A stretch of 64,000 nt of DNA, taken from Candidatus Latescibacterota bacterium. Its GTDB lineage: Bacteria > Latescibacterota > UBA2968 > UBA8231. The notes beneath the pieces are model-generated. The model was given only the letters and a program-made list of their open reading frames with translations. It was not told where the DNA came from and did not search any database. The translations under genes and the position numbers were made by a program. How positions within the stretch are numbered: the stretch's first letter is position 1; every line of letters starts with the position of its first letter. The stretch is taken from positions 2,272,001 to 2,336,000 of the forward strand of contig CBDFJF010000002.1 of the NCBI GenBank assembly GCA_965248265.1, given 5' to 3'. This document shows positions 22,961 through 49,375 of this stretch, piece after piece.

Positions 22961-22968
22961 TGTCGCTA

Positions 22969-23494: not shown

Positions 23495-23568
23495 GGAAGT
23501 ACAAGAGCCCTTTTTGGTGATTCACGAGTCTCGACGTGAGTATTTGGCGCCATCGGGGGGTAGGATCG
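23495..23568 (-). repeat. Repeat R copy 1 (short, degenerate); putative IS91/ISCR oriIS end
   Basis: ggaagtacaagagccctttttggtgattcacgagtctcgacgtgagtatttggcgccatcggggggtaggatcg matches copies 2-4; terminal 5 nt missing. Confidence 0.85.
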
Positions 23569-23582
23569 CGCCTGTTGCCAGC

Positions 23583-25574
23583 TCAGTACACGCGCAACGT
23601 GTTGCCCACCGTGCCGGTCAGGACATCGACGACGAGCCAGCAGCCGCCGACGACGATCTGACCGAGGGCGACGCCCATGAAGAAGGGCACGGTCCGGCGG
23701 TAGAGGGCGGCCCCCCCGAACCTGAGGACGATCGCTTTGATCAGCCACGCGAGAAAGATCGAGCACCAGATCTGACTCATGACCCAACCCATGCTCGCGG
23801 CAAAACCGATGGGATGCAACGGCCACCAGATCCAATGGTTGCGAACGAAGATCAGGACGCCCATCAGGAAGGCGCCGGCGCCGGTCCAGAGCCAGCCGAT
23901 GAAATCGGGGCCGGTCGGGTTGAGGATTTTCTGCATGGCGAACTTGGAGGGATTATCGGCAAAGCCGGTGAAGTACTGTGCGTGGAGGTTTACGGCGCCA
24001 TGAGTATAGGCCAGGTGCAGGGTGTACCAGGTGGAAACAGTCAGGCTGATGAACATGGCCGCGGCAATGCCCCAGAGCAGGCGGCGGCGGTTGCCGCGCA
24101 GTTCGGAATCCAGGTCGCTGCCAAGGCGCATGGCATTGACCAGAGGGGCGGTCATGAAGACGAGCATATCGCCGATCCAGACGACGGTATAGCCCAATGC
24201 GACCAGGCCCTTGATACCCAGGGCCGGCACGCCGACGGCGCTGACGGCGAATCCGCTGGGTACCATACCGGGGGTAATCGTCGGGGTCCCCACCTCGGCG
24301 ACTATGCGCGCCAGGGCCACGAGAATACAGAGGGCGGTGACGACGACGAGCGCGGCGATCCACAAGGGCAGCCCGCTCTGCCACAGCCACAGGGTCATCA
24401 TCGTCGCGCCCATCGCGAACCCGCCGATACAGAAGCGGTACGAGGCCATCTCACCGGTTTCTCGTCCCGGCCGCCAGGCTTTGCGTAAGACATCCGCCAG
24501 ATGGGCGCGCGCCGTCCACAAGCCGTAGCCGACGAGTACCGCCAGAGCTCCCATCATCTGGTGCCCTATCCCCGCGATAGACCACTCGCCGAGCTGATCG
24601 CTGTGGTTGAGGTGCAGGCTGCGGAGAAGGCCGTCTTCCAGCGCGTGCAGCAGGTAAAAGACCCAGAGGCTGAGGGAGAGCTGGGTGCCGATGAGATAGG
24701 CGAAGCCGAGCATGATGAAGTTGATGCCGATGCTCAGCGTGACGCTGTCGCGCACAAAGGTCAGCTGGGTTCGCAAGGTCGGGGAGGGCACGCCGGGAAA
24801 GTAGTGCTGCAGAGCCTCGAGGCTGCCGAGGACGAAAGGGATCGCCAGGCCGATCCAGATAAGGGGATTGCGGAAGAAGGGTTTGAGCAGCCTGCCACCC
24901 TCGTCCTGGATCATGGCCAGGGGAACCTGCGCCATCGGATAGGCCAGGCGCTCGTTGTCGACCCATTGGCGCCGCAAGATGCTCATCAACGAAATCAGGG
25001 TCAGGTAAAACGCCGCGTAGAACAGGAGCCAGCTACCCAGAGGTAAGAGCCAGGCGGACCAGGGAATTCGAGCGCCGCGTCCCTGGCCTTCGTAGAAGGC
25101 GTTGATGGCCTCCTCGTCGGCGACAACCATCCAGCTTGCCAGGTGCGGATGAATCAGCGTGGCCCACTGATTTTCGGGCGTGGCGTAGTAGAAGGTGCCG
25201 GTGATCATCGGCAGCAGCATACCGACGACGCCGCGGGTGGGTATGGCGGTGGCGACGGCCATCATGACGAAGATCGTCAGCAATTCGCCGCGGCTGAAGG
25301 CCCAGGCGCGCTTGAGTGCGCCGAGGAAAAGGTGCAGGGTCAACAGCAATACGAAAAGCAGGAAGAAGGCTGCCGGCGTGACCGAGCTCAACCCCATGCG
25401 GGTGCCCTGGATGACCATGCTGCCGTAGGGAACACCTACGGCGATAAACCCCGCCAACCCGCAACCGCAGATAATTGCCCGCATGGTGACACCTGAGGAG
25501 GCGTTGTCCCCGGTCACGGTCCTGTCGAGGTGGCCGCGGAAGTCGGTGGGAAGCTCTCGGCGCAAGGGGCTCAT
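23583..25574 (-). CDS. Polytopic membrane protein, DUF6785/DUF6784 putative peptide transporter (start may be about 60-90 nt downstream)
   Basis: 663 aa, many TM segments; YYATPENQW, LRRQWVDNERLAYP, WWPLHPIGF, PFFMGVALG. Confidence 0.8.
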   Translation of the reverse strand: MSPLRRELPTDFRGHLDRTVTGDNASSGVTMRAIICGCGLAGFIAVGVPYGSMVIQGTRMGLSSVTPAAFFLLFVLLLTLHLFLGALKRAWAFSRGELLTIFVMMAVATAIPTRGVVGMLLPMITGTFYYATPENQWATLIHPHLASWMVVADEEAINAFYEGQGRGARIPWSAWLLPLGSWLLFYAAFYLTLISLMSILRRQWVDNERLAYPMAQVPLAMIQDEGGRLLKPFFRNPLIWIGLAIPFVLGSLEALQHYFPGVPSPTLRTQLTFVRDSVTLSIGINFIMLGFAYLIGTQLSLSLWVFYLLHALEDGLLRSLHLNHSDQLGEWSIAGIGHQMMGALAVLVGYGLWTARAHLADVLRKAWRPGRETGEMASYRFCIGGFAMGATMMTLWLWQSGLPLWIAALVVVTALCILVALARIVAEVGTPTITPGMVPSGFAVSAVGVPALGIKGLVALGYTVVWIGDMLVFMTAPLVNAMRLGSDLDSELRGNRRRLLWGIAAAMFISLTVSTWYTLHLAYTHGAVNLHAQYFTGFADNPSKFAMQKILNPTGPDFIGWLWTGAGAFLMGVLIFVRNHWIWWPLHPIGFAASMGWVMSQIWCSIFLAWLIKAIVLRFGGAALYRRTVPFFMGVALGQIVVGGCWLVVDVLTGTVGNTLRVY

Positions 25575-25654
25575 CCGCTGAAGGCGTGATTATCGGTCAT
25601 GCGGGTCGAGGGGCGAGTCCGTCGCGAATAGCAAAGGCTCTCCTTTTTCCGAAC

Positions 25655-25804
25655 GTTTAGGAAGTACAAGAGCCCTTTTTCTTGATTCACGAGTCCGGAC
25701 GTGAGTATTTGGCGCCATCGGTGGGTAGGATCGGATACATCACAGGTGGCCGGCCCACCGGAGGCCTGTACATGATGACCATCCTGCAGTGACGGTGCTC
25801 CACT
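25655..25804 (-). repeat. Repeat R copy 2 (150 bp); putative IS91/ISCR oriIS end next to GTTC
   Basis: 147/150 identical to 32707..32856 by manual comparison; flank gaac at 25651-25654 reads GTTC on the minus strand. Confidence 0.9.
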
Positions 25805-25820
25805 TTCCCATTTTTGCCAA

Positions 25821-26021
25821 GCCGGATTGTCGTGCAGATCGAGCAGCGGTGCCACGCCCAACGCGACCAGAGTCGGTGTTGAGGGAGGGCATTCGCTGGA
25901 ATCCTGCCTGAAATACTGCGTTCGCAGCTAACCGGATCGACTCAGGCGCTGCAGTTGGAGCACGGGGCCATGGGTCGTAGTAGACGACATCGCCCGTGCG
26001 CGTGAAGAAGCTCGGCGAAAG
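25821..26021. repeat. Direct repeat D copy 1 (about 200 bp)
   Basis: About 6 differences (2 indels) from 27669..27867. Confidence 0.92.
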
Positions 26022-26074
26022 ATGTCTCAGCCGCCGAACCGGTTTTGACAGCTGCCCAGTTGGCGGATTCGGCC

Positions 26075-27451
26075 TCAACCGGTCTGCGATTGCCAGGGCC
26101 CCGTGATGGCCAGCGTGATGCCCGGACTCTGGATGTTCACGTAGAGCGTCCTGCCGTCCGCCGAAAAGGTGGCCCCGGCGAACTCGGACCCGTTGTAGGC
26201 GTTGCGCCCGAACTTGTAGAGCTCGCCGTCGGGTGTTACGCCGACGAGGAACTGCTGCTCCGGACCGTCTTCGCACAGGATGAGATCGCCCCACGGAGTC
26301 ACCGTCACGTTGTCCGCGTTCTCTACGAGGTCGGTGTCGTTGGGCTCGATAAAGAGCTCGAGCGTGCCCGGCGCGCTGGATTCGTCGGCCGTGCCCTCGT
26401 GCGCACTCGGCATGTAGCGCCAGATCTGTCCCTTCTTTTTAGCGCCACCGTTCGTGCAGGCGAAATACACCGCCTCACGTCCATACCACATGCCTTCACC
26501 ACGGGCGAAGACGGCTGCCCCTTTGGCGTGCCCCTGGTAGCGCAGGTCGTTTTCGGGCGACTCGACGTTCTCGATGTCGATCCAGCGCACACTGAACTGC
26601 TCTCCCGGTTGCACCGAGTGCTCTTCCCAGTTGCGCGTGTCCAGGCCCGGGCGGTCGGCGACGACGAGGGCCTGTAGTCTGCCGCCCTCGGCCAGCCGCG
26701 CCGGCCGCTGCGGAATGTATCGGTAAATCAGGCTGTCACTGGTGTCTTCCGTCTGGTAGACGATTCCCGACCTCGGATCGACGGCGACGGCTTCGTGCAC
26801 GAACCGACCCATCTCACGGAGCGGCAGGGGCGCAGCCCGATGGGTCCGGGCCCTCACCGGCACTTCGAAGTTGTATCCGTGGTCCTTTTCGAGGTCGTCA
26901 CCGGCTTTTTGTGTGGTCTCTTCGCAGGTGATCCAGCTTCCCCAGGGGGTGGGCCCGCCGGCGCAATTGCCCACCGTGCCCGCCAGGCTCATGTAGTGAT
27001 GCTCGCGTTCTCCAGCGGCGCTGAGGACGATCGTGCTGGTACCGCCCATGGGAGGATGTCCATGGGCAAGGTCATAGAACGCCTCCTCCGGCAGCTTCTT
27101 CAACTGGAAATTCTCGAGTCCGGTATCGGTACACTCGTCGTAGTTGCGACTCAGCTCGTGGTTACAGACCAGAATCGTGCGGCCATCGCTGCCCGCGAAT
27201 GCCGCCATGGCATCGGGCGCTCCCGGCACCGGGAGACCGTCATCCATGGGGTCTCCCGTACGGGACAGCACGCGGTAGGAGAACGCTTCCGGCAGGTCGA
27301 TGATCCGGTGCGGGTCGGAGAACAGGCGGCCGTAGCCGAAGCGTTCGGTCATCAGGCCCTCAGCGGCCCAGGCGACGTGGCGCTGCAGACCGTGGAATCC
27401 AATGGTGATAGCAGCGGCAGATTTCAGGAAGTGGCGTCTCGTTACGGGCAT
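26075..27451 (-). CDS. phoX: PhoX-family (DUF839) alkaline phosphatase, Tat-exported
   Basis: TRRHFLK signal, NHE, NCAGGPTPWGSWITCEE, GRFVHEA, RGEG, DNVT, LCED, SEFAG..FS.DG..LYVNIQ.PG. Confidence 0.9.
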   Translation of the reverse strand: MPVTRRHFLKSAAAITIGFHGLQRHVAWAAEGLMTERFGYGRLFSDPHRIIDLPEAFSYRVLSRTGDPMDDGLPVPGAPDAMAAFAGSDGRTILVCNHELSRNYDECTDTGLENFQLKKLPEEAFYDLAHGHPPMGGTSTIVLSAAGEREHHYMSLAGTVGNCAGGPTPWGSWITCEETTQKAGDDLEKDHGYNFEVPVRARTHRAAPLPLREMGRFVHEAVAVDPRSGIVYQTEDTSDSLIYRYIPQRPARLAEGGRLQALVVADRPGLDTRNWEEHSVQPGEQFSVRWIDIENVESPENDLRYQGHAKGAAVFARGEGMWYGREAVYFACTNGGAKKKGQIWRYMPSAHEGTADESSAPGTLELFIEPNDTDLVENADNVTVTPWGDLILCEDGPEQQFLVGVTPDGELYKFGRNAYNGSEFAGATFSADGRTLYVNIQSPGITLAITGPWQSQTG

Positions 27452-27574
27452 GTCATGCTCCTTTCCTCGGCGCGGGCAGAGTAGTGCCCCGATCCGTACA
27501 ACACAAGTTAGAAACGATCACTGAACGTCTCACGCCACGGCCGGTTGATTTGTCGAGACGACATCTGCCCACCT

Positions 27575-27673
27575 GCTTTGGGTTACGGCGTCCCACAGGA
27601 GGAAGCCTATCCAGCTAGAGTGCAGGCACGCCTCGACTCGGCTCGGGATGCCGTTGCGCATCGTCAACGCCGG
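27575..27673 (+). pseudogene. Shard of a GDSL/TesA-like arylesterase
   Basis: LGYGVPQEEAYPARVQARLDSA, then frameshifted RIVNAG. Confidence 0.55.
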
Positions 27674-27867
27674 TTGTCGTGCAGATCGAGCAGCGGTGCC
27701 ACGCCCAATGCGACCAGAGTCGGCGTTGAGGGAGGGCATTCGCTGGACTCCTGCCTGAAATACTGCGTTCGCAGCTAACCGGATCGACTCAGGCGCTGCA
27801 GTTGGAGCACGGGGCCATAGGTCGTAGTAGACGACATCGCCCGTGCCGTGAAGAAGCTCGGCGAAAG
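27669..27867. repeat. Direct repeat D copy 2
   Basis: Same orientation as 25821..26021; the pair brackets phoX. Confidence 0.92.
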
Positions 27868-27905
27868 CGCCGACCATGTGGGATAGGCACTCTGTCCATC
27901 AGCTC

Positions 27906-28108
27906 TAGTGTCCCGTCGCAGAAATATGTCGATATTCTTCCGCCGATTCATCCCCGCTCGCGGCGTGGGACCGAACTCTTGGAGTTCGGCCTCGTCCCTG
28001 AGCGCCTTCGCTCGCCGTATCCGACTGATACGACTTGCTCAGGCGCCTTGCGAGCAGGGTCGCCTCGGCGGCCAAATTTTGTCAACCTATTTCTGCGACG
28101 GGACACTA
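27906..28108. mobile_element. MITE, IS630-type (about 200 bp, TA duplication in CTAG context)
   Basis: Perfect 19-bp terminal inverted repeats GTGTCCCGTCGCAGAAATA (27908-27926 and 28088-28106), TA on both sides, no transposase. Confidence 0.85.
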
Positions 28109-28109
28109 G

Positions 28110-28412
28110 GTGCTTGCCCATCAGATCGCAGCAGGCCATGTCGAGGTTGAACGGACCGGTACTCATCACGTGGTCGAAGGGATCCGTGCCGATGTAGGGA
28201 TCCAAAAACTCCTGTGCGAACGTGGGTCCGACGCTCTCGCCAAGGCCGACCAACCCAGTGTCTGTATGAAACTTGTAGAGTGTGACTTGCTCGGTCATGG
28301 CGAAATGATGGTACTGCTTGCGGATTCGCTCCTCGTAGGGAACCTGGAGCGGGACTTGACACTCCATCAGGACCAAGGGTATCCCGGTGTACGGGATCGC
28401 CAGCCGATTCAT
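28110..28412 (-). pseudogene. N-terminal fragment of a mandelate racemase/enolase-superfamily gene, ending at the MITE
   Basis: LYKFHTDTGLVGLGE, YIGTDPF, LDMACCDLMGKHL, then MITE sequence. Confidence 0.8.
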
Positions 28413-28559
28413 TCGATCGCATGTGGCCACGGGTTTGGGAGATGATGAAACAATGTCCACTATTGATCGAGTGCCAGTGCTGGCAGTGGAGAACCTGGAT
28501 CGGGACGACTATCTTGTCGCCGAAGGACTGACCGGGACGTAAGATCATTTCAAGCAGGG

Positions 28560-29708
28560 ATGAACGGGATGAAAAGCTCTCAACCATACCAACTTGCCAT
28601 CATCCGCTCTGGAAAAACCGGCCGTGTTTCATCCTGGGACACCTCCGGTCGCAACAAGGACCGCTGGATCCTGGATCCAGGAGAGAGTCGCGTGCTCGCC
28701 GATATCGATGGCCCCGGGCTGATCACGCACATATGGATGACGCAACCCAGACATTACCGTGAGTGTCTGCTCAAGTTTACCTGGGACAACGCTCGCCATC
28801 CGAGCATCGTCTGTCCACTTGGAGACTTCTTCGGCCTGGGGCACAACATCGTCAACTCATACCAGTCTCACCTGTTTACGGCGTCAGCGCGAACGGACAA
28901 TCAGTTCAACAGCTTCTGCGCGCTCAACAGCTATGCCCCCATGCCGTTCCGTGAGCGCGCCGTCGTCGAACTCGTCAACGAGAGTTCCGAACAGCATGTC
29001 CAGTATTTCTACCTTGACTACGAAGCGCTCGAAGACAACCCGGATGAGCATCTCGGTTACTTTCACGCCGAATTTCGCAGGGAAAACCCATTCGGTGGCT
29101 GGGGACATGAGATCACTGTCAACGTACCGGAAGCCGACGTCGTCAACAAGGAGAGGATGGCGTGGGACAGCAACTACGTCATTCTCGAAACGAAGGGACG
29201 GGGTCACTACGTGGGCTGCAACCTGTCGGTTACCAATTTCCAGGGCACATGGTGGGGTGAGGGGGATGACATGATCTGGGTCGACGGCTACAAATGGCCT
29301 CCCGATCTGCACGGAACCGGCAGCGAGGATTATCTGAACCAGGCCTACGGCATGCAGGACAATGCCTTTCTCAGGAACGGCTCGTCGATTCATGAGGATA
29401 ACACCGGCGGGTACCAGACGAGTTACGTACACCACCTCGAAAACCCGGTCCGCTTTTCGCGCGAAATCAAGGTGACGATCGAGCACGGTCACGCCAATCA
29501 CCTGGCCAATGAGATGAGCAGCGTTGCGTACTGGTACGCGGAAGAGCCAACGAAGGTGGCGAAGGTACCGGCCGTCGCCAAGAGGATGGAGGTGAAGCGG
29601 GACAACCAGGGTGAGTGGCTGCACGAGAAGCGGACACAGTCCACTTCCAATCAAGTTCCGCTCAACCGCGAGATGCGCGCGAGCAAACAGAAATTCAAGA
29701 GCAAATGA
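28560..29708 (+). CDS. DUF2961 / GH172 glycoside hydrolase
   Basis: SSWD.SGRN.D, GPGLITHIWMT, PLGDFFG, WWGEGDD, GTGSEDY, IEHGHAN. Confidence 0.92.
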   Translation: MNGMKSSQPYQLAIIRSGKTGRVSSWDTSGRNKDRWILDPGESRVLADIDGPGLITHIWMTQPRHYRECLLKFTWDNARHPSIVCPLGDFFGLGHNIVNSYQSHLFTASARTDNQFNSFCALNSYAPMPFRERAVVELVNESSEQHVQYFYLDYEALEDNPDEHLGYFHAEFRRENPFGGWGHEITVNVPEADVVNKERMAWDSNYVILETKGRGHYVGCNLSVTNFQGTWWGEGDDMIWVDGYKWPPDLHGTGSEDYLNQAYGMQDNAFLRNGSSIHEDNTGGYQTSYVHHLENPVRFSREIKVTIEHGHANHLANEMSSVAYWYAEEPTKVAKVPAVAKRMEVKRDNQGEWLHEKRTQSTSNQVPLNREMRASKQKFKSK

Positions 29709-29719
29709 GGAGTGGAGGG

Positions 29720-31018
29720 ATGAACGAGGAACGCTTCGCGCGGATCCTACTCGCGTGGTTGATTTTACCGGGGTTGATCTCTGCTGAGCAGAGCCGCCCG
29801 GTGCCCGCTTTCCCAGGTGCGGAAGGTTTCGGGAAATACGCCGTTGGCGGACGCGGTGGGTCTATCTATTCCGTCACCAATCTGGACGACGCTGGACCCG
29901 GCTCTCTGCGCGAGGCGGTCAGTCGACCGAACCGAATTGTCGTCTTTCGGGTCTCCGGCACTATCGACCTCCAGTCACCTCTCGAAATCGCACAATCCAA
30001 TCTCACCATCGCCGGACAAACGGCCCCGGGTGACGGCATTTGCCTCAAGGGGAGTGGGACCTACATCAATGCCAACGACGTGGTCGTGCGCTATCTGCGC
30101 TGCCGGCCGGGCGACGAACAGAAGGAGCCGCACGATGGTCTCTCCATTTCGGGCGGCAAGCGCATCATCGTGGATCATTGCTCGGTGTCGTGGTCGGTCG
30201 ATGAGGCCCTCTCGGTTACGGGAACGACGACGGACGATATCACCATCCAGTGGTGTTTCGTGACGGAGAGTCTGGATGATTCCGTTCATCCCAAGGGTCC
30301 GCATGGAATGGGATCGTTGCTGCGGTTGCAGGATGGGCACTTGTCGATGCATCACAATCTCTACGCCCATCACCAGACGCGAAATCCGGCGATAGCCTCG
30401 TACAAAGACAGAACCATGCTTCTCGACTTTCGCAACAACGTCGTCTACGACTGGGGCGGGCATCCGTGCACGGGCGCCAAGGCCGGCTACTATGCGCGCT
30501 TGAACTACGTCGGCAACTACCTGCGGAGTGGAGCCTCCACGCTCGAGCAGAGAAGGGATTGGGCTTTCTTCGGCTGGAGCGTGGACACTCAGGTCTACCA
30601 GGCACAGAATCTGATCAACGGCAAAGACCTCGGTTGGGGCATGTTCCTGCGGACGTACTCAAAGGCAGCGCAAGCCTTCGGAGCCGAACCCGTTCAGACC
30701 GAGCCGGCCGAAGTCGCCTTCGACCGCGTTCTCGCCGAGGCGGGGGCTACTCGTCCGCGTCGAGATGCCGTCGACACTCGTATTGTGTCCCAGGTCAAAC
30801 ACAGGACGGGGCAAATCATCGACTCCCAGAGCCAGGTGGGAGGATGGCCTGCGCTCGAGTCTGCCCAACCGCCGCCTGACAGCGATGGGGACGGCATGCC
30901 CGACTCATGGGAACGGCAGATGGAGCTGCTACCCGATGACCCCGGCGACGGCAAGCTGGATCGAGACGGTGACGGCTACACCAATGTCGAAGAGTATCTG
31001 AACGGCACCGAGCCATGA
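29720..31018 (+). CDS. Pectate lyase (PL1-like), secreted
   Basis: AFPGAEGFG...GGRGG, GSLREA, GQTAPGDGI, DHCSVSWSVDE, RNP, DSDGDGMPD.WE, DGYTNVEEYLN. Confidence 0.92.
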   Translation: MNEERFARILLAWLILPGLISAEQSRPVPAFPGAEGFGKYAVGGRGGSIYSVTNLDDAGPGSLREAVSRPNRIVVFRVSGTIDLQSPLEIAQSNLTIAGQTAPGDGICLKGSGTYINANDVVVRYLRCRPGDEQKEPHDGLSISGGKRIIVDHCSVSWSVDEALSVTGTTTDDITIQWCFVTESLDDSVHPKGPHGMGSLLRLQDGHLSMHHNLYAHHQTRNPAIASYKDRTMLLDFRNNVVYDWGGHPCTGAKAGYYARLNYVGNYLRSGASTLEQRRDWAFFGWSVDTQVYQAQNLINGKDLGWGMFLRTYSKAAQAFGAEPVQTEPAEVAFDRVLAEAGATRPRRDAVDTRIVSQVKHRTGQIIDSQSQVGGWPALESAQPPPDSDGDGMPDSWERQMELLPDDPGDGKLDRDGDGYTNVEEYLNGTEP

Positions 31019-31068
31019 TGCACCACATCCTCGGCAGTGCTCGCGGCACTCTCGTTGGCCTTTAAGGG

Positions 31069-31096
31069 TTGATATCAGTATCAATAGTGATACTAT
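31069..31096 (+). promoter_or_regulatory. Toxin-antitoxin promoter with operator inverted repeat
   Basis: TTGATA (31069) -16 nt- TACTAT with extended TG; inverted repeat AGTATCA-atag-TGATACT (31077-31094). Confidence 0.65.
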
Positions 31097-31103
31097 TAGG
31101 GAG

Positions 31104-31160
31104 CAGGTGCTACAGGCAATCGACAAGCTGGAGTATGAACATGGCGACGAAGAAGGATAA
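31104..31160 (+). pseudogene. Last 18 codons of a HicA-like toxin
   Basis: QVLQAIDKLEYEHGDEEG* overlapping the hicB start; resembles HicA C-termini. Confidence 0.6.
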
Positions 31161-31470
31161 ATACACCTACCGGGTAACATGGTCCGAGGATGACCGTGAA
31201 TACGTTGGTGTATGCGCGGAGTTTCCGAGTTTGAGCTGGTTGGCGTCGACCCAGGAGGGTGCTCTCAAGGGGATTCGGAGAGTCGTCAACCGCGTTGTGA
31301 AGGATCTTGCGTCAGCCGGAGAGCCCGTCCCTGAACCGCTGGCGGCCAAGAACTTCAGTGGCCGGTTTCTAGTACGTGTTCCGGAGGAGGTCCACCGGCG
31401 TCTCGCGATACATGCCGCCGAAACGGGTGTAAGTCTAAATCGTCTCGTCAGCGCAAAGTTGAGCCGCTGA
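31141..31470 (+). CDS. hicB: HicB family antitoxin
   Basis: YTYRVTWSEDD.EYVG.CAEFPSLSWLA, FSGRFLVRVPEEVHRRLA..AAE.GVSLN. Confidence 0.9.
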   Translation: MATKKDKYTYRVTWSEDDREYVGVCAEFPSLSWLASTQEGALKGIRRVVNRVVKDLASAGEPVPEPLAAKNFSGRFLVRVPEEVHRRLAIHAAETGVSLNRLVSAKLSR

Positions 31471-31490
31471 CAGCGCAGGGGGAAGACAGC

Positions 31491-32513
31491 ATGGCAACTG
31501 TAGCATTCATCACCGAAGACGGAGCTTCTCACCGTCCTGCTTACCAGCAGGCGATCCGCGATGTCGACCTGATCGAGCGCGCGGTGCTGGTGGATTCGGA
31601 TGGTGCCACCTTCGATGAGACTCAACAGGTCTGCGGGGAAAAAGTCGCCGGATGCGAGACCTCCATCGACTCCATGTTGGAGACGGTTCGTCCGGATATG
31701 GCTATCGTGACGATGAAGGGGGCACACGCTCCGCCGGTGATCCGCCCGCTGCTCGAAGCGGGCATCCATGTCCTGGCCGAAAAGCCAGCCTGCGTCGATC
31801 CCGATGACTTCGCCGATCTGGCCGTACTGGCTGGTCGCAAGGGGGTTCACCTCATGCTGGCGTTCGCCCAGCGTCTGCACCAGCCGAACATCGACGCCTG
31901 CCGCATAGTCGCAGACGGGGAAATCGGCGAGCTGTATGCCGTGCAGGCCACCCAGGTGGACGACCAGGCTCGCATTCAGCGGCGCCTCGACAGGGGGGAC
32001 TGGACCTTCATCAAGGCCTTGGCCGGTGGCGGCCATCTGTCATGGCTGGGGATCCACACGGTCGACCAGATCCGCTTTCTCACCGGCCTCGAGGTCGAGG
32101 CCGTCTCGGCGATGACGCCCGTCGTCGGCGGCACTTCCATCGACGTCGAGGATCTGGCCACCGTCAGCATGCGATTCGCTGGTGGCGCTCACGGGGCGCT
32201 GTTCTCGGGGTACCTGATGCCAGAGAAGGGGCACTCGTCGATGACGGTGTACGGGTCAGAGGGCTGGGTCCGATTGAATGCCGCCGAGCGTGGTCAGCTA
32301 GAATGGCGGCGCGTCGGATCCCCTAAGCGGGTCATCAGCTACTCCGGCCATGCGGGCGGGTACACCCCATGGGTGGAGCGCACGCTGCAAGCCTGCCTGG
32401 GACAGTGTGAACCGCCGCTGGCGGCTGCCGACGGACTCGCCGCACTGCAGATCGTCCACGCCGCCTACCGTTCGAGTGAGACGGGGCGGACCGTGGAGAT
32501 CGCCCGGAGCTAG
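31491..32513 (+). CDS. Gfo/Idh/MocA oxidoreductase
   Basis: HVLAEKP, GGGHLSWLGIHTVD, DVEDLA. Confidence 0.9.
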   Translation: MATVAFITEDGASHRPAYQQAIRDVDLIERAVLVDSDGATFDETQQVCGEKVAGCETSIDSMLETVRPDMAIVTMKGAHAPPVIRPLLEAGIHVLAEKPACVDPDDFADLAVLAGRKGVHLMLAFAQRLHQPNIDACRIVADGEIGELYAVQATQVDDQARIQRRLDRGDWTFIKALAGGGHLSWLGIHTVDQIRFLTGLEVEAVSAMTPVVGGTSIDVEDLATVSMRFAGGAHGALFSGYLMPEKGHSSMTVYGSEGWVRLNAAERGQLEWRRVGSPKRVISYSGHAGGYTPWVERTLQACLGQCEPPLAAADGLAALQIVHAAYRSSETGRTVEIARS

Positions 32514-32526
32514 ACGATCAGCGCCA

Positions 32527-32706
32527 TCATCCCTTGAACTCGATACTGACGGAATCGAGCTGGATGCAACCCTCCGGCACCCGCGACCTCCAGACGGGGT
32601 AATCCAGGATGTGGGGATCGCCATCGATCGAACCCATGGGCTCGACCTGCAGCGGGTAGAGGACGAAGAGGATGTCCGCGTTGACATCACCGAGAATCGT
32701 CGTCAC
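32527..32706 (-). pseudogene. 3' fragment of an unidentified gene starting exactly at the fixed end of repeat R copy 3
   Basis: Protein-like frame TTILGDVNADILFVLYPL...QLDSVSIEFKG* with no start of its own. Confidence 0.45.
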
Positions 32707-32856
32707 GTGTAGGAAGTACAAGAGCCCTTTTTCGTGATTCACGAGTCCGGACGTGAGTATTTGGCGCCATCGGTGGGTAGGGTCGGATACATCACAGGTG
32801 GCCGGCCCACCGGAGGCCTGTACATGATGACCATCCTGCAGTGACGGTGCTCCACT
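32707..32856 (-). repeat. Repeat R copy 3 (150 bp); putative oriIS end
   Basis: 147/150 identical to copy 2; ends 7 nt from the amidohydrolase stop codon. Confidence 0.9.
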
Positions 32857-32863
32857 CTGTCCA

Positions 32864-33700
32864 TCAGCTCTCCGCCCTTTTCAACAGGGCCATCAGGTTT
32901 TCGCCGACAATGAGGTCGCGGTCGCCGTCGCTCAGAAACGGCATTTTCCAGAACAGACCAAGCGTCTGCGAATAGGTCTGATGATTGAGACACGGCGTGT
33001 AGTCGGAGGCGAACAGCAGTCGCCCGACGCCAAACGCTTCGATTAATGCCTCGACAAGGGGCCATGCCAGTTCGTACGGATGATCGTACGACAGCTCTGT
33101 TATGGCGTAGAACCCGCTCAGCTTGACGCACACCTGCGGAAATCGAGCCAGAGCGATTACCGCTTTCAACCTGTCGCGCGCCTGCGCCTGGTCGATCAGC
33201 CCACTGACTTTGTCAGGCAGACCCAGATGGGATATGATCAGTCGAAGCTCGCGGTGACGGCCGAGGATTTCCTGCCACACGTCCCAAGCGTCTCCTCTCC
33301 AGTTGACGCTGAGGATCCACTGCTGGGCGATCAGCCACTCCCAGATCTCGTCGGGGCAGGCACGCACGGCGTCCGCGCTCCGAGGGTACATGGTCAATCC
33401 GATAACACCCTCATCGCGCCATTGCTCAAGCTCCTCGATCCCGGGTGCGTCGTCGGGCTCCACGTGGGTCGCCGGACGGACCCAGTCGTAATTTGATTGA
33501 AGGCCGATTACGAATTCGTTGTTTCTCTCGTTTCCTTCGCAGCGGCGATAACAGACGATGAGAGCCGCCGCCACGTCACTCTCCTTTGCGAGAGAATCGA
33601 AGCAGGCTGCCTCGTCCATGTGAACGCCCGGCCGGTCCGGGAACGAACCTCCCAGGGGTTTTTCGAAGAGGTGGATATGCGCGTCGGCTCGCTGTGCCAT
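32864..33700 (-). CDS. Amidohydrolase_2 family protein
   Basis: DAHIHLF, ISHLGLP, VKLSGFY, LLFASDY; RBS GGAG. Confidence 0.88.
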   Translation of the reverse strand: MAQRADAHIHLFEKPLGGSFPDRPGVHMDEAACFDSLAKESDVAAALIVCYRRCEGNERNNEFVIGLQSNYDWVRPATHVEPDDAPGIEELEQWRDEGVIGLTMYPRSADAVRACPDEIWEWLIAQQWILSVNWRGDAWDVWQEILGRHRELRLIISHLGLPDKVSGLIDQAQARDRLKAVIALARFPQVCVKLSGFYAITELSYDHPYELAWPLVEALIEAFGVGRLLFASDYTPCLNHQTYSQTLGLFWKMPFLSDGDRDLIVGENLMALLKRAES

Positions 33701-34044
33701 GTCGTGTCTCCGTTCTCAATTATTGGGGGCGACCGGTGCCGTTTCCTGGGCGCCCCAGTGCTGTTCCAGATCGCCCTGCGAGTCACTCTGGATTCCACCA
33801 CGCTCAAACCGGCATCGCCCTTGCGCCGAGCAGCCCTCAACTCGGTAATATAGACGCACGCCAGGCGGCGAACATGCAGTACCGACGATGACAATCACCG
33901 GAGAGGATGGCAAGTCCATCGTTGAGGTGATGGACGTGGCTTTCTCCCACGGTGGATCTACACGACCTTCTTTCCAACAATCCTGCGGACGTGTCCCCGA
34001 AAGTTAGAACGAGTAGTCGTCCAGAGACAGGACAGGGAACACCC

Positions 34045-38383: not shown

Positions 38384-39020
38384 CTGGGGAGCTGGCTAGG
38401 GCCCGTTGGGTAGAAGATTGCCCGCGTCTTGGTGTCGAATGAAAATCTGAGCTTTTGTGATGGACGGGATGGGTACTTTGGCCTTGCGGGGGCTGGGCGA
38501 GGGTGGATTCCGGCCCCGGCTTTGGTTACGCACCGATCCCGTCGGATCAGGCAGCGTAATCGAACTCAGACTGCTGGGAAGTCCTTGCCTGGGCGATGGG
38601 TGGAGGGCGAGCCGGCAGACCGACACCCTCAAGGTAAGACCGAATGGAGTGGTTCTACGACGCAAAAGGCTGATTCCGGTCGCAGATTTCAGTTCGAATC
38701 TCGGACCGGTGCTATGCAGAAGGAAGCCCTGCATGTACAATGTTATACAGTCTGTATGAACATAGTTACGCTGCTGAAAGAACCGCTGATCTGCAAGCCA
38801 CCGGCGTCCAATACCTCACGTTCAAGAAAGCCAAGGGAAAGTAAATCATCTCACACAAGACCTCGCATGAGCGGGCCCGACGGTGCGTGGCGCTCGCCGA
38901 GAGCGAGGACTTTCGGCGATCTCCGAATCCCGCTTGATCCTCCAGTCGGGCCTGATCGACGAGGCCGACATCGAGAATCACGGGATGGTTGGGTTAAGAA
39001 ATTCGCCTTCGCGCTTAGCG

Positions 39021-39887
39021 TTATGCAAGCGCCTCGAAATACCTCTTCTCGCGCATCCAATCAATCCAGCGTTGACGTCTCGGGCGATTGTCGGGATTGG
39101 CTATCCAGTCCGGGTGGTACTCCGGTCTCAGCTTATCAAAGGTCTCCTTAGCGCGCGCCGCCCGAACCTTACGCGAAAGAAGCACTTGCTCGTTTATGGC
39201 TTCGTCTTCTTCAGGCGAAACGGCTTGCTTAATAAAAATCATCGATAACATGCGCCTACCATTTGACCCTCCTGTACTGGCATGCCAAACCCTGAAATCA
39301 AAGACAATAATATCGCCCGGATTCACGGAGCAGATAAAGGCGGGGACTTCACAAATATCGAAACCAGTGTCTGAATCTGAATCAGCATTAGTAACCTTAG
39401 TGTCCCGCTCGAGACCGTCATGCTTTGGTTTGCGCATTTCGATTTGCTTTATATCGTCATGCAGTGGGTAACTGTGTGATCCAGGGATTACGCGTAGGGC
39501 GCCATTATTGCCATTGAGCGGCTGTAAATAAGTGACCACCTTAATCCCGTGCATTCGTCGAAAATTGGAATCGGGATGCCAGGCTGTATCACCAGATTTA
39601 CTGGAAGCATTGCAGGAAATCCCGTAAAATCCATCCGTATATATTGAATCTACAATTTCGATTATCCGTGAATCTTCCAATAGCGATCCCGTAAATGGAG
39701 TATCCGGTCCAAGGTTGGGCCAGCTCATGGACAACAATTTTTCTGCTTTAGATTTTGCATCCGTGGTCGTCGCCAATTTAGCATCAAACTCTGCGTTTAA
39801 CTTGTGGACTTCCTCCACACTGAGAACATTCCTCAGGATGAGAACCCCAAAAGTATTGAAATAGCCGACTTGTGCCTGAGTAAGCAT
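39021..39887 (-). CDS. Phytanoyl-CoA dioxygenase (PhyH) family, low GC
   Basis: YFNTFG.LILRNV, WHPD, GALRVIPGSH, PGDIIVFD..VWHAS. Confidence 0.9.
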   Translation of the reverse strand: MLTQAQVGYFNTFGVLILRNVLSVEEVHKLNAEFDAKLATTTDAKSKAEKLLSMSWPNLGPDTPFTGSLLEDSRIIEIVDSIYTDGFYGISCNASSKSGDTAWHPDSNFRRMHGIKVVTYLQPLNGNNGALRVIPGSHSYPLHDDIKQIEMRKPKHDGLERDTKVTNADSDSDTGFDICEVPAFICSVNPGDIIVFDFRVWHASTGGSNGRRMLSMIFIKQAVSPEEDEAINEQVLLSRKVRAARAKETFDKLRPEYHPDWIANPDNRPRRQRWIDWMREKRYFEALA

Positions 39888-40114
39888 CTTTTTTAATAAA
39901 AACATGATAGGAAATCTGATTTTGACACGGTGTTGACGGAGCTTACGTTAACCTGGCACGCCCAGCTCGTCAACGGGTTGACTCCTTGTAAGTCGGTAGG
40001 GCTGCCGGCCCGGCCACCGGCGATCGCACCACCTCGGGCCTCGCCCCAGCCCGAGTTCGCAGCCTGAGGCCTCTTTCGATCGCCGCCAACGCCGGCCGCA
40101 CGGCCTCGTCGGGC

Positions 40115-44408: not shown

Positions 44409-44553
44409 GTTTGCGTCCGATGTTGGCGTTGCCTTTTGCTCAAGCCCGGCGACCTCGCCTTCAGGCGTAGGTGCCGTAGCGCTCTACCAACTCTATGGCA
44501 AATGACAGCCTCCTTGAGGTCGATTTTCTCCTCCAGTTCCACAGCGATGGCCC

Positions 44554-45921: not shown

Positions 45922-45989
45922 CTTCCTTCCGTCCTGTTCCAGTAGTCAGCAGCTGTAACGACTCGCAGACACGATAGCGCTCTCTGGGC

Positions 45990-46195: not shown

Positions 46196-46357
46196 GACAC
46201 GCTAAATAGGCAAGCGCATAGTGAGGATAAAGGTCATAGTCGTGAGACGGATAGACAAGCGGTGACGTGTCAACACCAATCGTGGGCAAATGTCGGGTCT
46301 CCGTTCAGTTGAGGATAGGTGTGTAGGGACGGTTGTTCTTGAGGACACGGTTTGTGC

Positions 46358-46453
46358 CGCCACCGATCGAGTTCGCAGGCAACCGTCTGCTGCTGAACAT
46401 CGACTGCAGCGCCATGGGCGAAGCGTGGGTCGAGCTCCAGGACGAAAGCGGCA
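46358..46453 (+). repeat. About 95-bp near-identical inverted copy of 17549..17644 (GH32-like gene interior)
   Basis: PPIEFAGNRLLLNIDCSAMGEAWVELQDESG versus PPIEFAGNRLLLNIDCGAMGEAWVELQDEGG; about 3 nt differences. Confidence 0.9.
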
Positions 46454-46538
46454 GCGATGGCGGGGTGGTTGAAACTGCGCTGAAGGGGGATCTGCGAGTC
46501 CGGGAGATGGTCGTCAGGGGGATGATCATCTGGGATGA

Positions 46539-47288
46539 TTAGTCGAGCAAGCTCGACCGCAGTCGGGCAACTTCCTCTTTGCCGAGGCCAATCCTCTCTA
46601 CGTACTTGGCAATACCACCATACTTGGTCTGCATGTGCTCGAGAACAATCTCCATCGTCTGCTCCGCAGAATAGGCTCTGCTGAATTCCTCCAGAGTCGC
46701 CTCGCTACCGTGTTCGCGTCGAAAATCGTCGCGATCGCGGGGCCAGAGGTAGTGTGCACTCAGTGCGTAGTCCGCAACAATGGTTCCGTCGGGCACTCGG
46801 GCGAGACCAAGCAACAGTGCTGAGACGAGTCCGGTGCGATCCTTGCCGGCGGCGCAGTTGTAGAGCCCGGGCAGCGCCCCCGGTGCGGCGAAGACCCTGA
46901 GGGTCTCGAGCAACCTTTCCTGCCGTTCGTCTATCCAGTACTTGTAACTCTCAGCTGTCCTCAACTCGGAGGGAAGATCTGCTGGTGGTACGGCACGGGT
47001 TGTTCCCTCGATCAGTACATCGATGTGGACGTACGTCGGCGCCGACGTGGAGGAGGCAAAAACAGACGGTTGCTCAGCGAGCTCGCTCGGCAGTCTCAAG
47101 TCGACGATCGTCTGCAGGCCGAAATCGACGAGCGACTGCTGAGCCGCGGGCGTGAGCTTGTCCAGGCAAGCGGCGCGCAGGAAAACGCCCCAGTTCGTCT
47201 GGCCGCCGTCCACCGTGTCGTAGCCCCCGAGGTCCCTGATATTGTATCCACCTTCGAGGTCGAGATGTCTCTGTCCGTTGGTATGCAT
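46539..47288 (-). CDS. Tyrosine-protein phosphatase (Y_phosphatase3 type)
   Basis: NIRDLGGY, IVDLR, NCAAGKDRTG, DYALS. Confidence 0.92.
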   Translation of the reverse strand: MHTNGQRHLDLEGGYNIRDLGGYDTVDGGQTNWGVFLRAACLDKLTPAAQQSLVDFGLQTIVDLRLPSELAEQPSVFASSTSAPTYVHIDVLIEGTTRAVPPADLPSELRTAESYKYWIDERQERLLETLRVFAAPGALPGLYNCAAGKDRTGLVSALLLGLARVPDGTIVADYALSAHYLWPRDRDDFRREHGSEATLEEFSRAYSAEQTMEIVLEHMQTKYGGIAKYVERIGLGKEEVARLRSSLLD

Positions 47289-47302
47289 GTGGTAACTATC
47301 CC

Positions 47303-47554
47303 TTACTGGTGTGTGTTTGCGAGTGGACCGCCGACACGCTGCGCTCGGTCGCTATTCGAAGAGGAGCCACCCATAAATACATCGTCGAAGGAATCCTTGT
47401 AGATGGCCAGTTGCTTACGGCGAATATGGCGAACCTGGTTGACGCTGAGGCCGAAATGGTTGGCAATCTTCTGATTGATGCGGTGAGGATTCCACCGGTC
47501 CAAGATCAACTGCTGGATGATCTCGTGTTCCTGAGTGGTCAGTTCCTTGCCCAT
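47303..47554 (-). CDS. Short helix-turn-helix-like ORF, possibly a fragment
   Basis: NQKIANHFGLSVNQVRHIRRK. Confidence 0.4.
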   Translation of the reverse strand: MGKELTTQEHEIIQQLILDRWNPHRINQKIANHFGLSVNQVRHIRRKQLAIYKDSFDDVFMGGSSSNSDRAQRVGGPLANTHQ

Positions 47555-48081
47555 GCAACAAACTTAAAAAACGGGGACGTGCAGGAAAAGAAGGGCGAAG
47601 TGTATGGTTGTATGGGTGTGAGTGACTGCCCTCAAGGGCTGGCTCTCGAGTCCTGTCCGCTTCGCTGTTTCTTTGCGCTTTGCGAAGTTACCTCTGGATC
47701 ATCCAGCGCACGCAGCGCTCTCGCCCGAACCAGCTTCATCGCCGGGGTCGGTCCGAAACCTTGACCTCCGCAAACCAGCCCTCATGTCGGGGATGCAGCC
47801 TCTAACAGAGAGATCACCTGGTCGAAACTTTTGGCGTCAGCGGAGAGTTCGTGCGGATTCAGGGTATGTGGACCTTCACCCTACCGGGTTGCCCACCCCA
47901 AGCCGCCCACTCCAATGGGGATGACCCCGTCGACGTTTAGGAAGTACAAAGGCCCTTTTCGTGATCCACGAGTCCGGACGTGAGTATTTGGCGCCATTGG
48001 TGGGTAGGATCGGATTGATACTTCCCCAAGAGAGTGGACACCTCGAAGCGCCAAGTTAAATTTCTGGCAGGAGGTGTTCTT

Positions 48082-48369
48082 ATGTCACGCAAGTATGATC
48101 GTGAGTTTAAGCTCGAGGCCATTCGCCTGGCCGCAGAAGAAGGGGTATCGGCCCGAGGGGTCGAGCAACGATTGGGTTTAAGTGCAGGCATTATCAGTCG
48201 TTGGAAGAGAGAATTGAAGGTCCAAGGAGATGAAGCCTTCCCAGGTACCGGCCATTTAGGTGATCACGACGAGGAGGTCCGCCGTTTGCGGCGTGAGCTG
48301 GCGCGGGTGTCCCAGGAACGAGATATCCTAAAAAAGGCGGCGGCCTTCTTCGCCAACGAGTCCAGATGA
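48082..48369 (+). CDS. IS3 transposase OrfA
   Basis: RKYDREFKLEAIRL, ERDILKKAAAFFA; RBS GGAGG. Confidence 0.95.
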   Translation: MSRKYDREFKLEAIRLAAEEGVSARGVEQRLGLSAGIISRWKRELKVQGDEAFPGTGHLGDHDEEVRRLRRELARVSQERDILKKAAAFFANESR

Positions 48370-49235
48370 GGTATCGCTTCATCGAGGTGGAGAAGGCGAT
48401 GTACCCGGTCACTATGTTGTGTCGCGTGCTGCGGGTGTCGCGTAGCGGTTTCTACGCCTGGCAGCAGCGCCCGATCAGTCCTCGAGCTGAGCAGACTCGG
48501 CGACTGGATGTCGAGATCAACAAGTTGTTTGAAGCCAGCAAGCGGCGCTCCGGTAGCCCAAAGATCACCCGCGCCCTGATAGACGGAGGCTGGCAGGTGG
48601 GCGAGAATCGCGTTGCACGGCGCATGCGTGTGTTGGGTCTGCGTTCGATTGTGCGACGCCGTTTCAAGGTGACGACCAACTCGCAACATCGATTTGCGGT
48701 GGCGCCGAACCGTTTGCAGCGCGATTTCACCGCACAGCGCCCCAATCAAGTGTGGGTCAGCGACCTGACCTACCTCAGCGTCGGTCGCGGCTGGTTGTAT
48801 TTGGTCGTCGTCATCGACCTGTACTCCAGGCGCGTGGTGGGTTGGGCGTTGAGCTCGGCACTGGATCACCGCGTGGCGCTGGTCGCGCTGCAGCGGGCTG
48901 TAGCTCAACGTCGTCCGCCGAGGGGTCTGATCATCCATTCCGATCGCGGCGTTCAATACGCCTGCACCGCGTTCACTAACTGGGTCAGCAAACACGGCTT
49001 TGTGCAGAGTATGAGCCGTAAGGGCGACTGCTGGGATAACGCCGTGGCTGAGTCCTTCTTCCATCTGCTCAAGACCGAGTTGACCTACCACGAACACTGG
49101 CTCAACTACCGGGCCGCGTATCGCAGCCTGTTCGACTACATCGAGATTTTTTACAATCGAGAAAGGAGTCATTCCACCCTGGATTACGCAACACCCGCAG
49201 CATTCGAGCAGCATTCAACCAAACTTGCTGCTTGA
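48366..49235 (+). CDS. IS3 transposase OrfB (DDE)
   Basis: WVSDLTY, HSDRGVQY, SMSRKGDCWDNAVAESFF; ATGA overlap with orfA. Confidence 0.96.
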   Translation: MRYRFIEVEKAMYPVTMLCRVLRVSRSGFYAWQQRPISPRAEQTRRLDVEINKLFEASKRRSGSPKITRALIDGGWQVGENRVARRMRVLGLRSIVRRRFKVTTNSQHRFAVAPNRLQRDFTAQRPNQVWVSDLTYLSVGRGWLYLVVVIDLYSRRVVGWALSSALDHRVALVALQRAVAQRRPPRGLIIHSDRGVQYACTAFTNWVSKHGFVQSMSRKGDCWDNAVAESFFHLLKTELTYHEHWLNYRAAYRSLFDYIEIFYNRERSHSTLDYATPAAFEQHSTKLAA

Positions 49236-49375
49236 CGGTGTCCATTTTTCCGGGGGAGTATCAGATACATCACAATTATCTCCGTACCCCGTCGATCCGC
49301 GCTGGTTGATGATTAGCACCGCGTATCCCACTCCGGCCAACATCTGAAAGTCGAAAGAGAACAGTGACCTCCCGT

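Follow-up and report, generated by a model that had tools for sequence, protein, structure and literature searches.

Repeat R, a candidate family of transposase-less IS91/ISCR-type origin ends in a catabolic island of a marine Latescibacterota genome

Why does one short repeat stand four times in the same orientation between the genes of a catabolic island? We explored this question for repeat R in a window of 64,000 nt (positions 2,272,001 to 2,336,000 of contig CBDFJF010000002.1) from the genome of a Candidatus Latescibacterota bacterium (assembly GCA_965248265.1); positions in the window are given as plain numbers, whereas positions on the contigs of the genome carry the prefix C1 or C2. 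A preliminary description had read the common end of the R copies as the origin end (oriIS) of a rolling-circle insertion sequence (IS) of the IS91/ISCR family, and the array as a stack of oriIS-tagged gene cassettes moved in trans by a Y2 transposase of the HUH class. From the sequence comparisons described below, the fixed end of R is very probably a genuine IS91/ISCR-type oriIS, while the evidence on how the copies came to lie where they are points away from gene cassettes.

Repeat R and its fixed end

By blastn, R occurs only seven times in the whole 7.32-Mb genome, with the four co-oriented window copies inside 24.5 kb (Table 1) and the other three inside 14.8 kb of contig C1, a distribution far from chance. 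All copies share one sharp common end and vary in their inward extent (74-152 nt). Homology of window copies 1 to 4 stops inward after about 74, 150, 150 and 92 nt, respectively, and a repeat search of the window returned R both as a four-copy family (23495-23568, 25660-25733, 32712-32785 and 47939-48012; 78-100% identity to the reference copy) and as a 152-nt pair (25653-25804 and 32705-32856), without any inverted arms bounding it. Read on the minus strand, the sequence closes with ...CTTGTACTTCCTAAAC (in longer form ...AAAAGGGC(T/C)(C/T)TTGTACTTCCTAAAC) in copies 2 and 4 and with ...CTACAC in copy 3; the terminus is thus complete in three of the four window copies, copy 1 being short by 5 nt. 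On C1, the copy at 733158 has a complete terminus, the tip of that at 732568 is cut and that at 747229 ends in ...CTAAAA; two of these copies face each other across 383 nt that hold no gene, and the third abuts a plus-strand gene. Copies 2 and 3, which form the 152-nt pair and are 98% identical over 150-152 nt, have identical inner and outer boundaries and different flanks on both sides. For these two copies with defined boundaries, no common flanking repeat of at least 3 nt, as a target-site duplication would leave, was seen by eye. Copy 4 is split by an IS3-family element with a 3-bp duplication (GAT), which has been recently active, since its six genome copies are all 100% identical over 1248 nt.

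Within R, the two dyads TCACG-N8-CGTGA and GGTGG-CCGGC-CCACC can be read, and in the predicted DNA fold two hairpins, each with a stem of 5 bp and a loop of 8 nt, form no further than about 50 nt from the terminus. The junctions agree with assembled contigs of the probable source sample: one contig, spanning 22000-24367, bridges copy 1 without a difference, and copy 3 is entered from both sides (29270-32764 and 32827-34137). No trustworthy circular or empty form of R was present in these contigs, which confirm junctions but cannot reveal circles or rare forms; stretches that contigs left uncovered, and the small shares of two seawater runs, were not counted as evidence. The coordinates of R, its fixed end, the shortened copy 1, the variable inner extent and the dyads, all of which had been part of the preliminary description, were borne out by repeat search and sequence reading, as was the expected sharing of one terminus by all genomic copies.

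The fixed end was compared with three annotated plasmid records, ISCR1, ISCR2/ISVsa3 and the IS91-family element beside rmtC (ISCR-rmtC), each locus being roughly 2.8 kb long. In ISCR1, ISVsa3 and the rmtC-adjacent locus, the best match of the last 29 nt of R falls exactly at the oriIS terminus, with 21, 20 and 23 of 29 positions identical, scores that shuffled queries matched in 0, 3 and 0 of 500 trials; in these loci the terminus stands 230-254 nt past the transposase stop codon. Elements of the same kind reside in the genome itself. It encodes IS91-family Y2 transposases, as had been presumed, with 16 matches to PF04986, of which four span the whole profile in open frames of 486-534 amino acids, and the identity of these proteins to the ISCR1 and ISCR2/ISVsa3 transposases is 39-41%. 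Two resident elements were measured and end 225-226 nt past the stop codon, and R agrees with the resident end at C2:2467284 at 23 of 29 positions (own count). Resident ends read ...TAAAGGGCTCTTATCGTGCCTAACC followed by GTTC, ...GGTGCTTTATCGGTCCTATAC followed by GTAG and similar, and the end of R reads ...AAAAGGGCTCTTGTACTTCCTAAAC followed by GTTC.

The tetranucleotides next to the terminus, GTTC, GTGA and GTCG in window copies 2, 3 and 4, are of the target type of the family. IS91-family elements use the targets GTTC, CTTG and GTCC, the second base being a conserved T, make no target duplication and require the tetranucleotide beside oriIS (PMC13181058). R shares with ISCR elements the terminal pattern AAAAGGG..TT.T/A..TTCCTA.AC, the subterminal palindromes and the GTNN flank (GTCA in ISCR2), and the position of the end about 225-255 nt behind the transposase stop is common to complete copies on plasmids and in this genome. 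The resemblance to ISCR oriIS termini, noted in the preliminary description, holds against the real ISCR1, ISCR2 and ISCR-rmtC ends as well as against the resident elements. R differs from ISCR elements in its short length and lack of a transposase gene, in its terminus subtype TTGTAC.TCCTA.AC, which stands behind no transposase gene searched, and in its setting, an environmental marine lineage with catabolic instead of resistance genes as neighbours. Since a Y2 gene adjoins R at none of its seven genome copies, R is to be seen as a derivative of an element end and not as a family element in its own right.

Orphan ends and 3'-retaining fragments across the genome

A terminus profile was built from 11 ends, eight from this genome and three from plasmids, and ends scoring at least 19 were counted. 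This census returned 39 oriIS-like ends in the genome compared to one in the shuffled genome. R is one family among the 39, and its copy 2 has the top score of all (39.1). About 33 of the 39 ends lack a transposase gene: a transposase fragment lies no more than 800 nt inside the end in four cases, and coordinate comparison with a looser search adds two more with a short 3' fragment. GT directly follows 28 of the 39 ends (binomial P about 1e-26), T occupies the second flank position in 33, and the commonest flank tetranucleotides are GTTC (6), GTCG (4) and GTCC (3), a pattern that corresponds to the IS91-family target signature of PMC13181058. Orientation relative to the sign of the GC skew (23 ends agree, 16 disagree; own count) is not significantly biased. 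The ends form several families, within each of which the terminus is common and inward homology covers 27-374 nt; the fixed end and variable extent that had been noted for R are thus general across the genome. A second island at C1:728186-747356 carries six oriIS-like ends in 19 kb, belonging to R, to two families termed R2 and R3 and to the resident type, among them two co-oriented ends 243 nt apart and the inverted R pair. Across the genome, co-oriented neighbouring ends lie 243, 648, 1158 and 2165 nt apart, which is far too frequent for chance.

The transposase genes are truncated in a preferred direction. When the genome's own Y2 proteins were mapped back by tblastn, 53 gene loci were obtained, of which 6 are full length, 37 retain the 3' part only, 8 are internal and 2 retain the 5' part only; tblastn was used because Pfam profile ranges are unfit for 3'-only counts across the family, long intact open reading frames (ORFs) also matching the second half of the profile only. 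In the family genomes G015, G011 and G012, the number of Y2 profile matches is 38, 19 and 25, respectively. After random decay or splitting by insertions, 5' parts should be about as common as 3' parts, so that the bias of 37 to 2 argues for a directional process.

In addition, discrete short units recur. The orphan ends at C2:2691340 and C2:2692498 have in common a unit of 237 nt, with 100% identity between the two, that consists of 159 nt with 99% identity to the end of the intact element C2:1844057 and of 78 nt of unrelated DNA; in this sister family, the intact element thus supplies the master from which its two orphans derive a continuous piece. In family R2, six copies, three in this genome and three in its closest relative (G076/G012), have about 255 nt in common; in four copies the common part reaches about 331 nt, and two pairs each share a different extension beyond it. 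The R copy at C1:733158 and a copy on metagenome contig L033 have the same inner boundary. In our analysis, the nesting seen in R2 and in the 237-nt unit is the product that would be expected if copying began again and again at one fixed origin and ended at variable points, with a little inner DNA carried along each time. The carried-along DNA documented here measures 78 to about 160 nt and contains no gene.

The only direct precedent for orphan or non-autonomous oriIS elements returned by word searches of the literature, which cannot prove absence, is the work on IS801 of Pseudomonas syringae (Bardaji et al. 2011, PMC3189936), and none was found outside proteobacteria; a study of CR2-sul2 deals with integrase-mediated movement and has no bearing on orphan ends (PMC9376610). 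In the case of IS801, fragments of the right end (229, 360 and 679 nt) accounted for 26% of the transposition events, neighbouring DNA of 290-1431 nt was mobilised rarely (0.7% of events), and miniatures were recognised by an inner boundary that starts with a target-like tetranucleotide (PMC3189936). R resembles these miniatures in being transposase-less, in keeping the origin end with an inward length that varies as under sloppy termination, and in the occasional carriage of adjacent DNA, and the 3'-retaining bias is found here genome-wide. The two cases differ in that IS801 has its master in the same genome and each of its fragments starts with a target-like tetranucleotide, whereas R has no known master and heterogeneous inner boundaries; R is also shorter, and several independent families with about 33 orphan ends occur here in one genome.

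All R copies follow a common architecture, in which a terminal box of about 27 nt abuts GTNN and is followed inward by two small subterminal palindromes, a second box at about 65-88 nt and then variable sequence. A 22-nt box (GTGTAnCCnATCCTACCCAC-like) is common to R, R2 and the end at C2:1778106, lies 64-75 nt from the terminus and matches at 14-17 of 22 positions (15-17 except in the diverged copy C1:733158, with 14; null mean 11.5, standard deviation 1.1, maximum 18), and by eye it is also present in R3 at C1:746986. The sequence between the terminal box and the 22-nt box is unrelated among R, R2 and C2:1778106. At least about 79 nt are kept in all eight R copies, the seven genomic ones and the metagenome copy, which is close to the final 82 bp of IS91 that suffice as an origin end (PMC13181058) and hints at selection for function.

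R2 also connects this genome (G000) with its relative G012, which belongs to a different genus according to the genome search. The 99% identity of R2 across the two genera implies that either these short units themselves or their surrounding DNA pass from one lineage to another. The two genomes share one R2 site with the same outer flank (C2:1897799 and L020) and different inner DNA. In the relative, three co-oriented R2 copies lie within 8 kb, none of them behind a transposase gene. No empty R site was readable in this relative (G076 = G012): R is absent from it, its match to the window, at about 89%, is limited to 17347-21400, which is a multi-copy segment there, and the rest of 21.4-64 kb is not syntenic. 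As an observation of its own, the R2 copy at L020 7845-7889 bears a 21-nt tandem duplication of its own terminus (matches end at 7869 and 7890).

How the R copies may have arisen

We consider it fairly probable that the R copies are miniature derivatives of an origin end, without a transposase gene, which were generated by early-terminated rolling-circle transposition and are now located in intergenic gaps of a plastic catabolic island; R is a new family of an already known kind of element. The parent would have been an ISCR-like (IS91-family, Y2 HUH) rolling-circle transposon, with each R copy representing its oriIS end. Copying would start at the nick beside oriIS, proceed inward and stop early, whereupon the 5'-truncated miniature product would be inserted beside another GTNN site, presumably mobilised in trans; copying from such an orphan end could then take along a little inner DNA. 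The window copies would be insertions or relics between the genes of a highly plastic island, with the neighbouring genes already in place, and not tags of mobile gene cassettes. This proposal starts from four observations, namely what kind of end R has, how orphan ends populate the whole genome, the bias of truncation towards keeping the 3' part, and nested homology.

A number of points weigh against it. The inner boundaries of R (AGTG/GTGG in two copies, GGTC, CATG, CCTG in two copies including that on L033, TGTG and CGAT) follow no single motif; GT within 1 nt of the boundary, found in three of six boundary classes, is not significant. For IS801, the study authors judged most genomic fragments to be products of reorganisation, not of transposition (PMC3189936). 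Because R lacks the consistent inner tetranucleotide required of IS801 miniatures, and because of this judgement on genomic IS801 fragments, we infer early termination as a mechanism and do not count it among the observations. Deletion also acts on R, since copy 1 is cut at both ends. As for the genome-wide counts, the census is partly circular for the eight genomic ends from which the profile was built, and the 37 loci classed as 3' part only depend on self-chosen thresholds (up to 70 residues lacking at the C end and up to 40 at the N end).

The lack of a detected master element weighs in the same direction. No full-length element of which R would be a continuous piece turned up in this genome, in its relative G012/G076, among the 167 other genomes of the phylum or in either of the motif-scanned collections, one of species genomes and one of metagenome contigs. 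A transposase with an R-type end, or an R copy downstream of a Y2 gene as envisaged in the preliminary description, was likewise not found in this genome, its closest relative and the two collections; resident elements and those of the relative end in the TTATCG..CCTA..C or CATTTTACCTATAC types, not in the R type. The interior of R has no significant similarity to the transposase-linked ends of the genome (z below 2 in all nine comparisons). R itself occurs in none of 75 other genomes of the family (one 25-nt hit at chance level, E 0.006) and in none of the 167 other genomes of the phylum. In one genome each of 185,579 species, the exact terminus motif gave a single other record, again the relative G076/G012, and it is not beside a transposase gene. 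Among the metagenome contigs, L033 was the only one with the terminus motif and holds one more orphan copy of R, about 98 nt long, which has GTCC at its flank and is also not beside a transposase gene; an R-interior motif gave 0 hits there, and the scans of both collections used exact motifs only. Finally, the DUF6785 gene between copies 2 and 1 stands without any of the usual neighbours of its orthologues, which a single-gene mobile unit would also explain.

A different origin, in which the R copies are dead relics of complete ISCR-like elements that were eroded by deletion, insertion and recombination and never moved as short units, appears unlikely to us. It would suit an island full of debris, such as the Y2 fragment at 38550-38648, the IS3 element in copy 4, a MITE-like element (miniature inverted-repeat transposable element) at 27905-28109 and a split M81/MlrC gene, in which copy 1 is cut short on both sides, no consistent tetranucleotide marks the inner boundaries and synteny with the closest relative does not extend beyond 17347-21400; it is also the view that the IS801 authors took of most genomic fragments (PMC3189936). 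Random decay, however, predicts neither the 37 3'-only against 2 5'-only fragments nor units at separate loci that agree in both of their boundaries (R copies 2 and 3; the 237-nt pair) nor the retention of both conserved boxes in every R copy. Furthermore, no R copy contains a trace of a transposase, which is an unlikely outcome for seven or eight independent decays.

Still less probable, in our view, is the proposal of non-autonomous rolling-circle units, each made of a complete cargo gene and an oriIS end, which a Y2 transposase would move in trans by one-ended transposition reading through upstream DNA, and which would be stacked head to tail. Several of the observations behind it are sound. 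R does end in a true oriIS, and the genome does encode Y2 transposases; mini-elements of IS91 and IS801, or DNA adjacent to them, can be mobilised in trans (PMC13181058, PMC3189936). In the window, all four copies follow a complete minus-strand gene, at 14 nt (gene ending 23583), at 7 nt (32864), at about 100 nt (49376; counted from where R homology stops in the inner remainder of copy 4) and, for phoX, via repeat D, as had been described, and Pfam agrees with the gene identities given beforehand. Short inner DNA has been transduced here (78 nt; nested R2 extensions), the distances of 243-2165 nt between co-oriented ends fit landing on GTNN at the inner terminus of a resident unit, and the R2 site shared with the relative combines the same outer flank with different inner DNA. 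In one case, the interval of 2165 nt from the copy 2 flank GTTC to copy 1 contains exactly one complete gene, DUF6785, whose start codon (25574) lies 80 nt from copy 2. Orthologues of this gene with 70-79% amino acid identity are found in another genus of the family, with DNA homology confined to 25602-23583; identity reaches only 55% for the best paralogue in this genome and for the best G012 match, and none of the neighbours that the orthologues have accompanies the gene. The isolation of the gene is weak evidence for a cassette, because the contexts of its orthologues also vary among relatives.

Against such units, no cargo is shared: the genes adjacent to different R copies are not common to them, R copies share 74-152 nt only, and the maximum inward homology between any two orphan ends of the genome is 413 nt. 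In all collections searched, no gene-R junction was found in a second context. None of the three C1 copies follows a co-oriented gene, and neither does, by eye, the copy on L033, while two of the C1 copies face each other. A cognate transposase with an R-type end was not found, and no terminator end (terIS) was recognised beyond any cargo; the left ends of related elements, defined from pairs, contain an imperfect palindrome and are too divergent between families for a generic search. The G+C content of R-delimited segments (0.601-0.628) is not distinctive compared to the genome mean of 0.596 (standard deviation 0.025). Copy 2 is followed by GTTC and then a small palindrome, and any unit after an oriIS end begins with that flank by construction.

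The idea of oriIS-tagged gene cassettes is thus not supported. What is left of the claimed mobilisation of variable upstream DNA are short stretches that travel, such as the 237-nt unit with its 78 nt of foreign DNA, and not gene-sized cargo. The succession of a complete co-oriented gene and an R copy is valid for the window and fails on C1 and in the metagenome, and the co-oriented array as such is real. The label transposase-free is appropriate insofar as the window has no intact Y2 gene, and needs amendment for the IS3 transposase inside copy 4 and the Y2 C-terminal fragment at 38550-38648.

Just as doubtful is a wider form of the same thought, according to which the R superfamily (R, R2, R3 and C2:1778106) would consist of live origins that are fired in trans by a Y2 transposase and copy anything from tens of bases to whole genes; head-to-tail landing on an inner GTNN would then build co-oriented arrays, and the 2165-nt DUF6785 unit would be a captured single-gene cassette. 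The comparison with non-autonomous Helitrons, which had been drawn in the preliminary description, extends to the rolling-circle HUH logic, an end that defines initiation, leaky termination, an excess of non-autonomous over autonomous copies and the capture of flanking DNA. However, Helitrons capture gene fragments demonstrably and repeatedly, in contrast to the 78 to about 160 nt without a gene seen here, and the IS91-family transposase, unlike that of Helitrons, has no helicase domain. With MITEs, R has in common that it is short, non-coding and multi-copy and would depend on a transposase in trans; it differs in the lack of terminal inverted repeats and target duplication and in its ends, which are functionally different and of which one is variable.

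That R is a host regulatory or structural element, for instance an outward promoter like POUT of ISCR1, a terminator or a small RNA, which was spread or selected beside genes, is very improbable. Outward promoters are described in the oriIS end of ISCR1 (PMC13393415), R forms stable hairpins, and copy 2 precedes the DUF6785 start codon by 80 nt and copy 1 a possible ATG of an M81/MlrC-like gene by about 21 nt, but the variable inner end and the match to a transposon terminus would be left unexplained. Rfam returned no family match in R (one hit elsewhere, at E 0.67). No sigma-70-like promoter or intrinsic-terminator-like site was found in any R copy scanned, which for the promoter is weak evidence because the promoter type of this phylum may not be sigma-70-like. 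An integron-like cassette array with R as an attC-type site after each gene, as the co-oriented genes with a following repeat of imperfect palindromes and the junction of ...CTAAAC with GTTC, which we take to be loosely like integron core sites, might suggest, is excluded, given that no TIGR02249 match reaches the cut-off of 265 bits (the best locus, on another contig, consists of two pieces of 138 and 101 bits without profile positions 178-232, and sub-threshold matches occur in all 14 control genomes too) and that R has one fixed end only, which matches ISCR termini, and no paired inverse core site.

Other features of the island and significance

Table 1 Features of the window discussed in the text
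Feature	Position	Strand	Remarks
Weak oriIS-like end, resident TTATCG type	10019..10044	-	score 16.8, within chance range; then GTAC
R copy 1, 74 nt	23495..23568	-	without last 5 nt of oriIS terminus; also shortest inward; 14 nt past DUF6785 gene stop
DUF6785+DUF6784 membrane protein gene, 663 aa	23583..25574	-	Pfam; bracketed by R copies 2 and 1
R copy 2, about 150 nt	25655..25804	-	complete terminus at 25655 (...AAAAAGGGCTCTTGTACTTCCTAAAC), then GTTC
Repeat D	25818..25999 and 27665..27846 (extending to about 26021 and 27867)		direct repeat, about 200 nt, 96-97% identity
PhoX alkaline phosphatase gene, 458 aa	26075..27451	-	Pfam; flanked by two repeat D copies
R copy 3, about 150 nt	32707..32856	-	terminus then GTGA; 7 nt past amidohydrolase stop
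Amidohydro_2 gene, 278 aa	32864..33700	-	Pfam; just inside R copy 3
Y2 (IS91/ISCR-family) transposase gene fragment, last 33 residues	38550..38648	-	no oriIS-like end detected after it
R copy 4, terminus-proximal 81 nt	47935..48015	-	terminus at 47935, then GTCG
IS3-family insertion sequence, 1248 bp	48016..49263	+	two overlapping ORFs; rve and HTH_21 domains; splits R copy 4
R copy 4, inner remainder (GATACATCACA)	49264..49275	-	resumes beyond IS3 for about 11 nt
DUF4838 + FGE-sulfatase gene, 882 aa	49376..52024	-	Pfam; inside R copy 4

Repeat D occurs nowhere else in the genome and may be the scar of a duplication or mark the edge of a replaced segment. In the seawater metagenome run X1, a contig of 88% likeness is reported to join 26021 to 32852 with 18 other letters between them; this is a lead and not a finding, which, if true, would link the amidohydrolase gene to the region of repeat D and R copy 2 in a related organism and put it in the place that phoX has here. 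A join of 37020 to 23615 in X3/X5 allows no interpretation. In most of 76 genomes of this bacterial family, DUF6785 membrane proteins give at least 15 matches per genome, a huge expansion.

Beside R copy 1, just outside it, the M81/MlrC-type peptidase gene at 21949-23191 is split into two overlapping ORFs (DUF1485 at 22592-23191, MlrC_C at 21949-22665) with the first 146 profile positions out of frame, and it is probably a frameshifted pseudogene. A PhyH-family dioxygenase gene at 39021-39905 lies 372 nt upstream of the Y2 fragment on the same strand; with a G+C content of 0.466 and 0.48 at third codon positions (GC3), compared to the genome mean given above, it is probably foreign. The MITE-like element spans about 205 nt, with 41-nt inverted ends that are 80% complementary. 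It has about 20 blastn hits in the genome, several of them 88-97% identical over about 200 nt, as well as many matches of 76-85% in G012, and contig depth over it is several-fold above its neighbours.

The ORF at 17370-18908 on the minus strand, within a segment of 1.58 kb (17347-18930), encodes a 512-residue protein without a Pfam family and stands beside DUF4838 genes. Seven copies of the gene exist in G000 (83-86% DNA identity, covering the gene only) and five to six in G012, and a 105-nt inverted piece of it lies at 46349-46453. This segment was considered as a transposase in view of its seven copies, some of them beside oriIS ends, and was rejected: it looks like an ordinary enzyme paralogue, and its position relative to the ends is inconsistent.

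To our knowledge, IS91/ISCR elements have been studied almost only as carriers of resistance and virulence genes in proteobacteria. What is of note here is how numerous and clear-cut the orphan ends are in an environmental lineage, the two-box architecture for which no master is known, and the possible shuffling of genes by such ends. If R and its relatives were live origins copying whole genes, they would provide a mechanism for assembling catabolic islands and could be a main engine of catabolic gene shuffling in these marine bacteria, a counterpart of non-autonomous Helitrons; the present data do not show this. For annotation, the 27-nt terminal box together with GTNN can flag ends that are invisible to gene callers and IS finders. 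An environmental marine lineage with a large, mostly decapitated IS91/ISCR population thus offers a natural, genome-scale picture of IS801-like early termination, in which orphan origins may be able to re-copy short stretches of neighbouring DNA.

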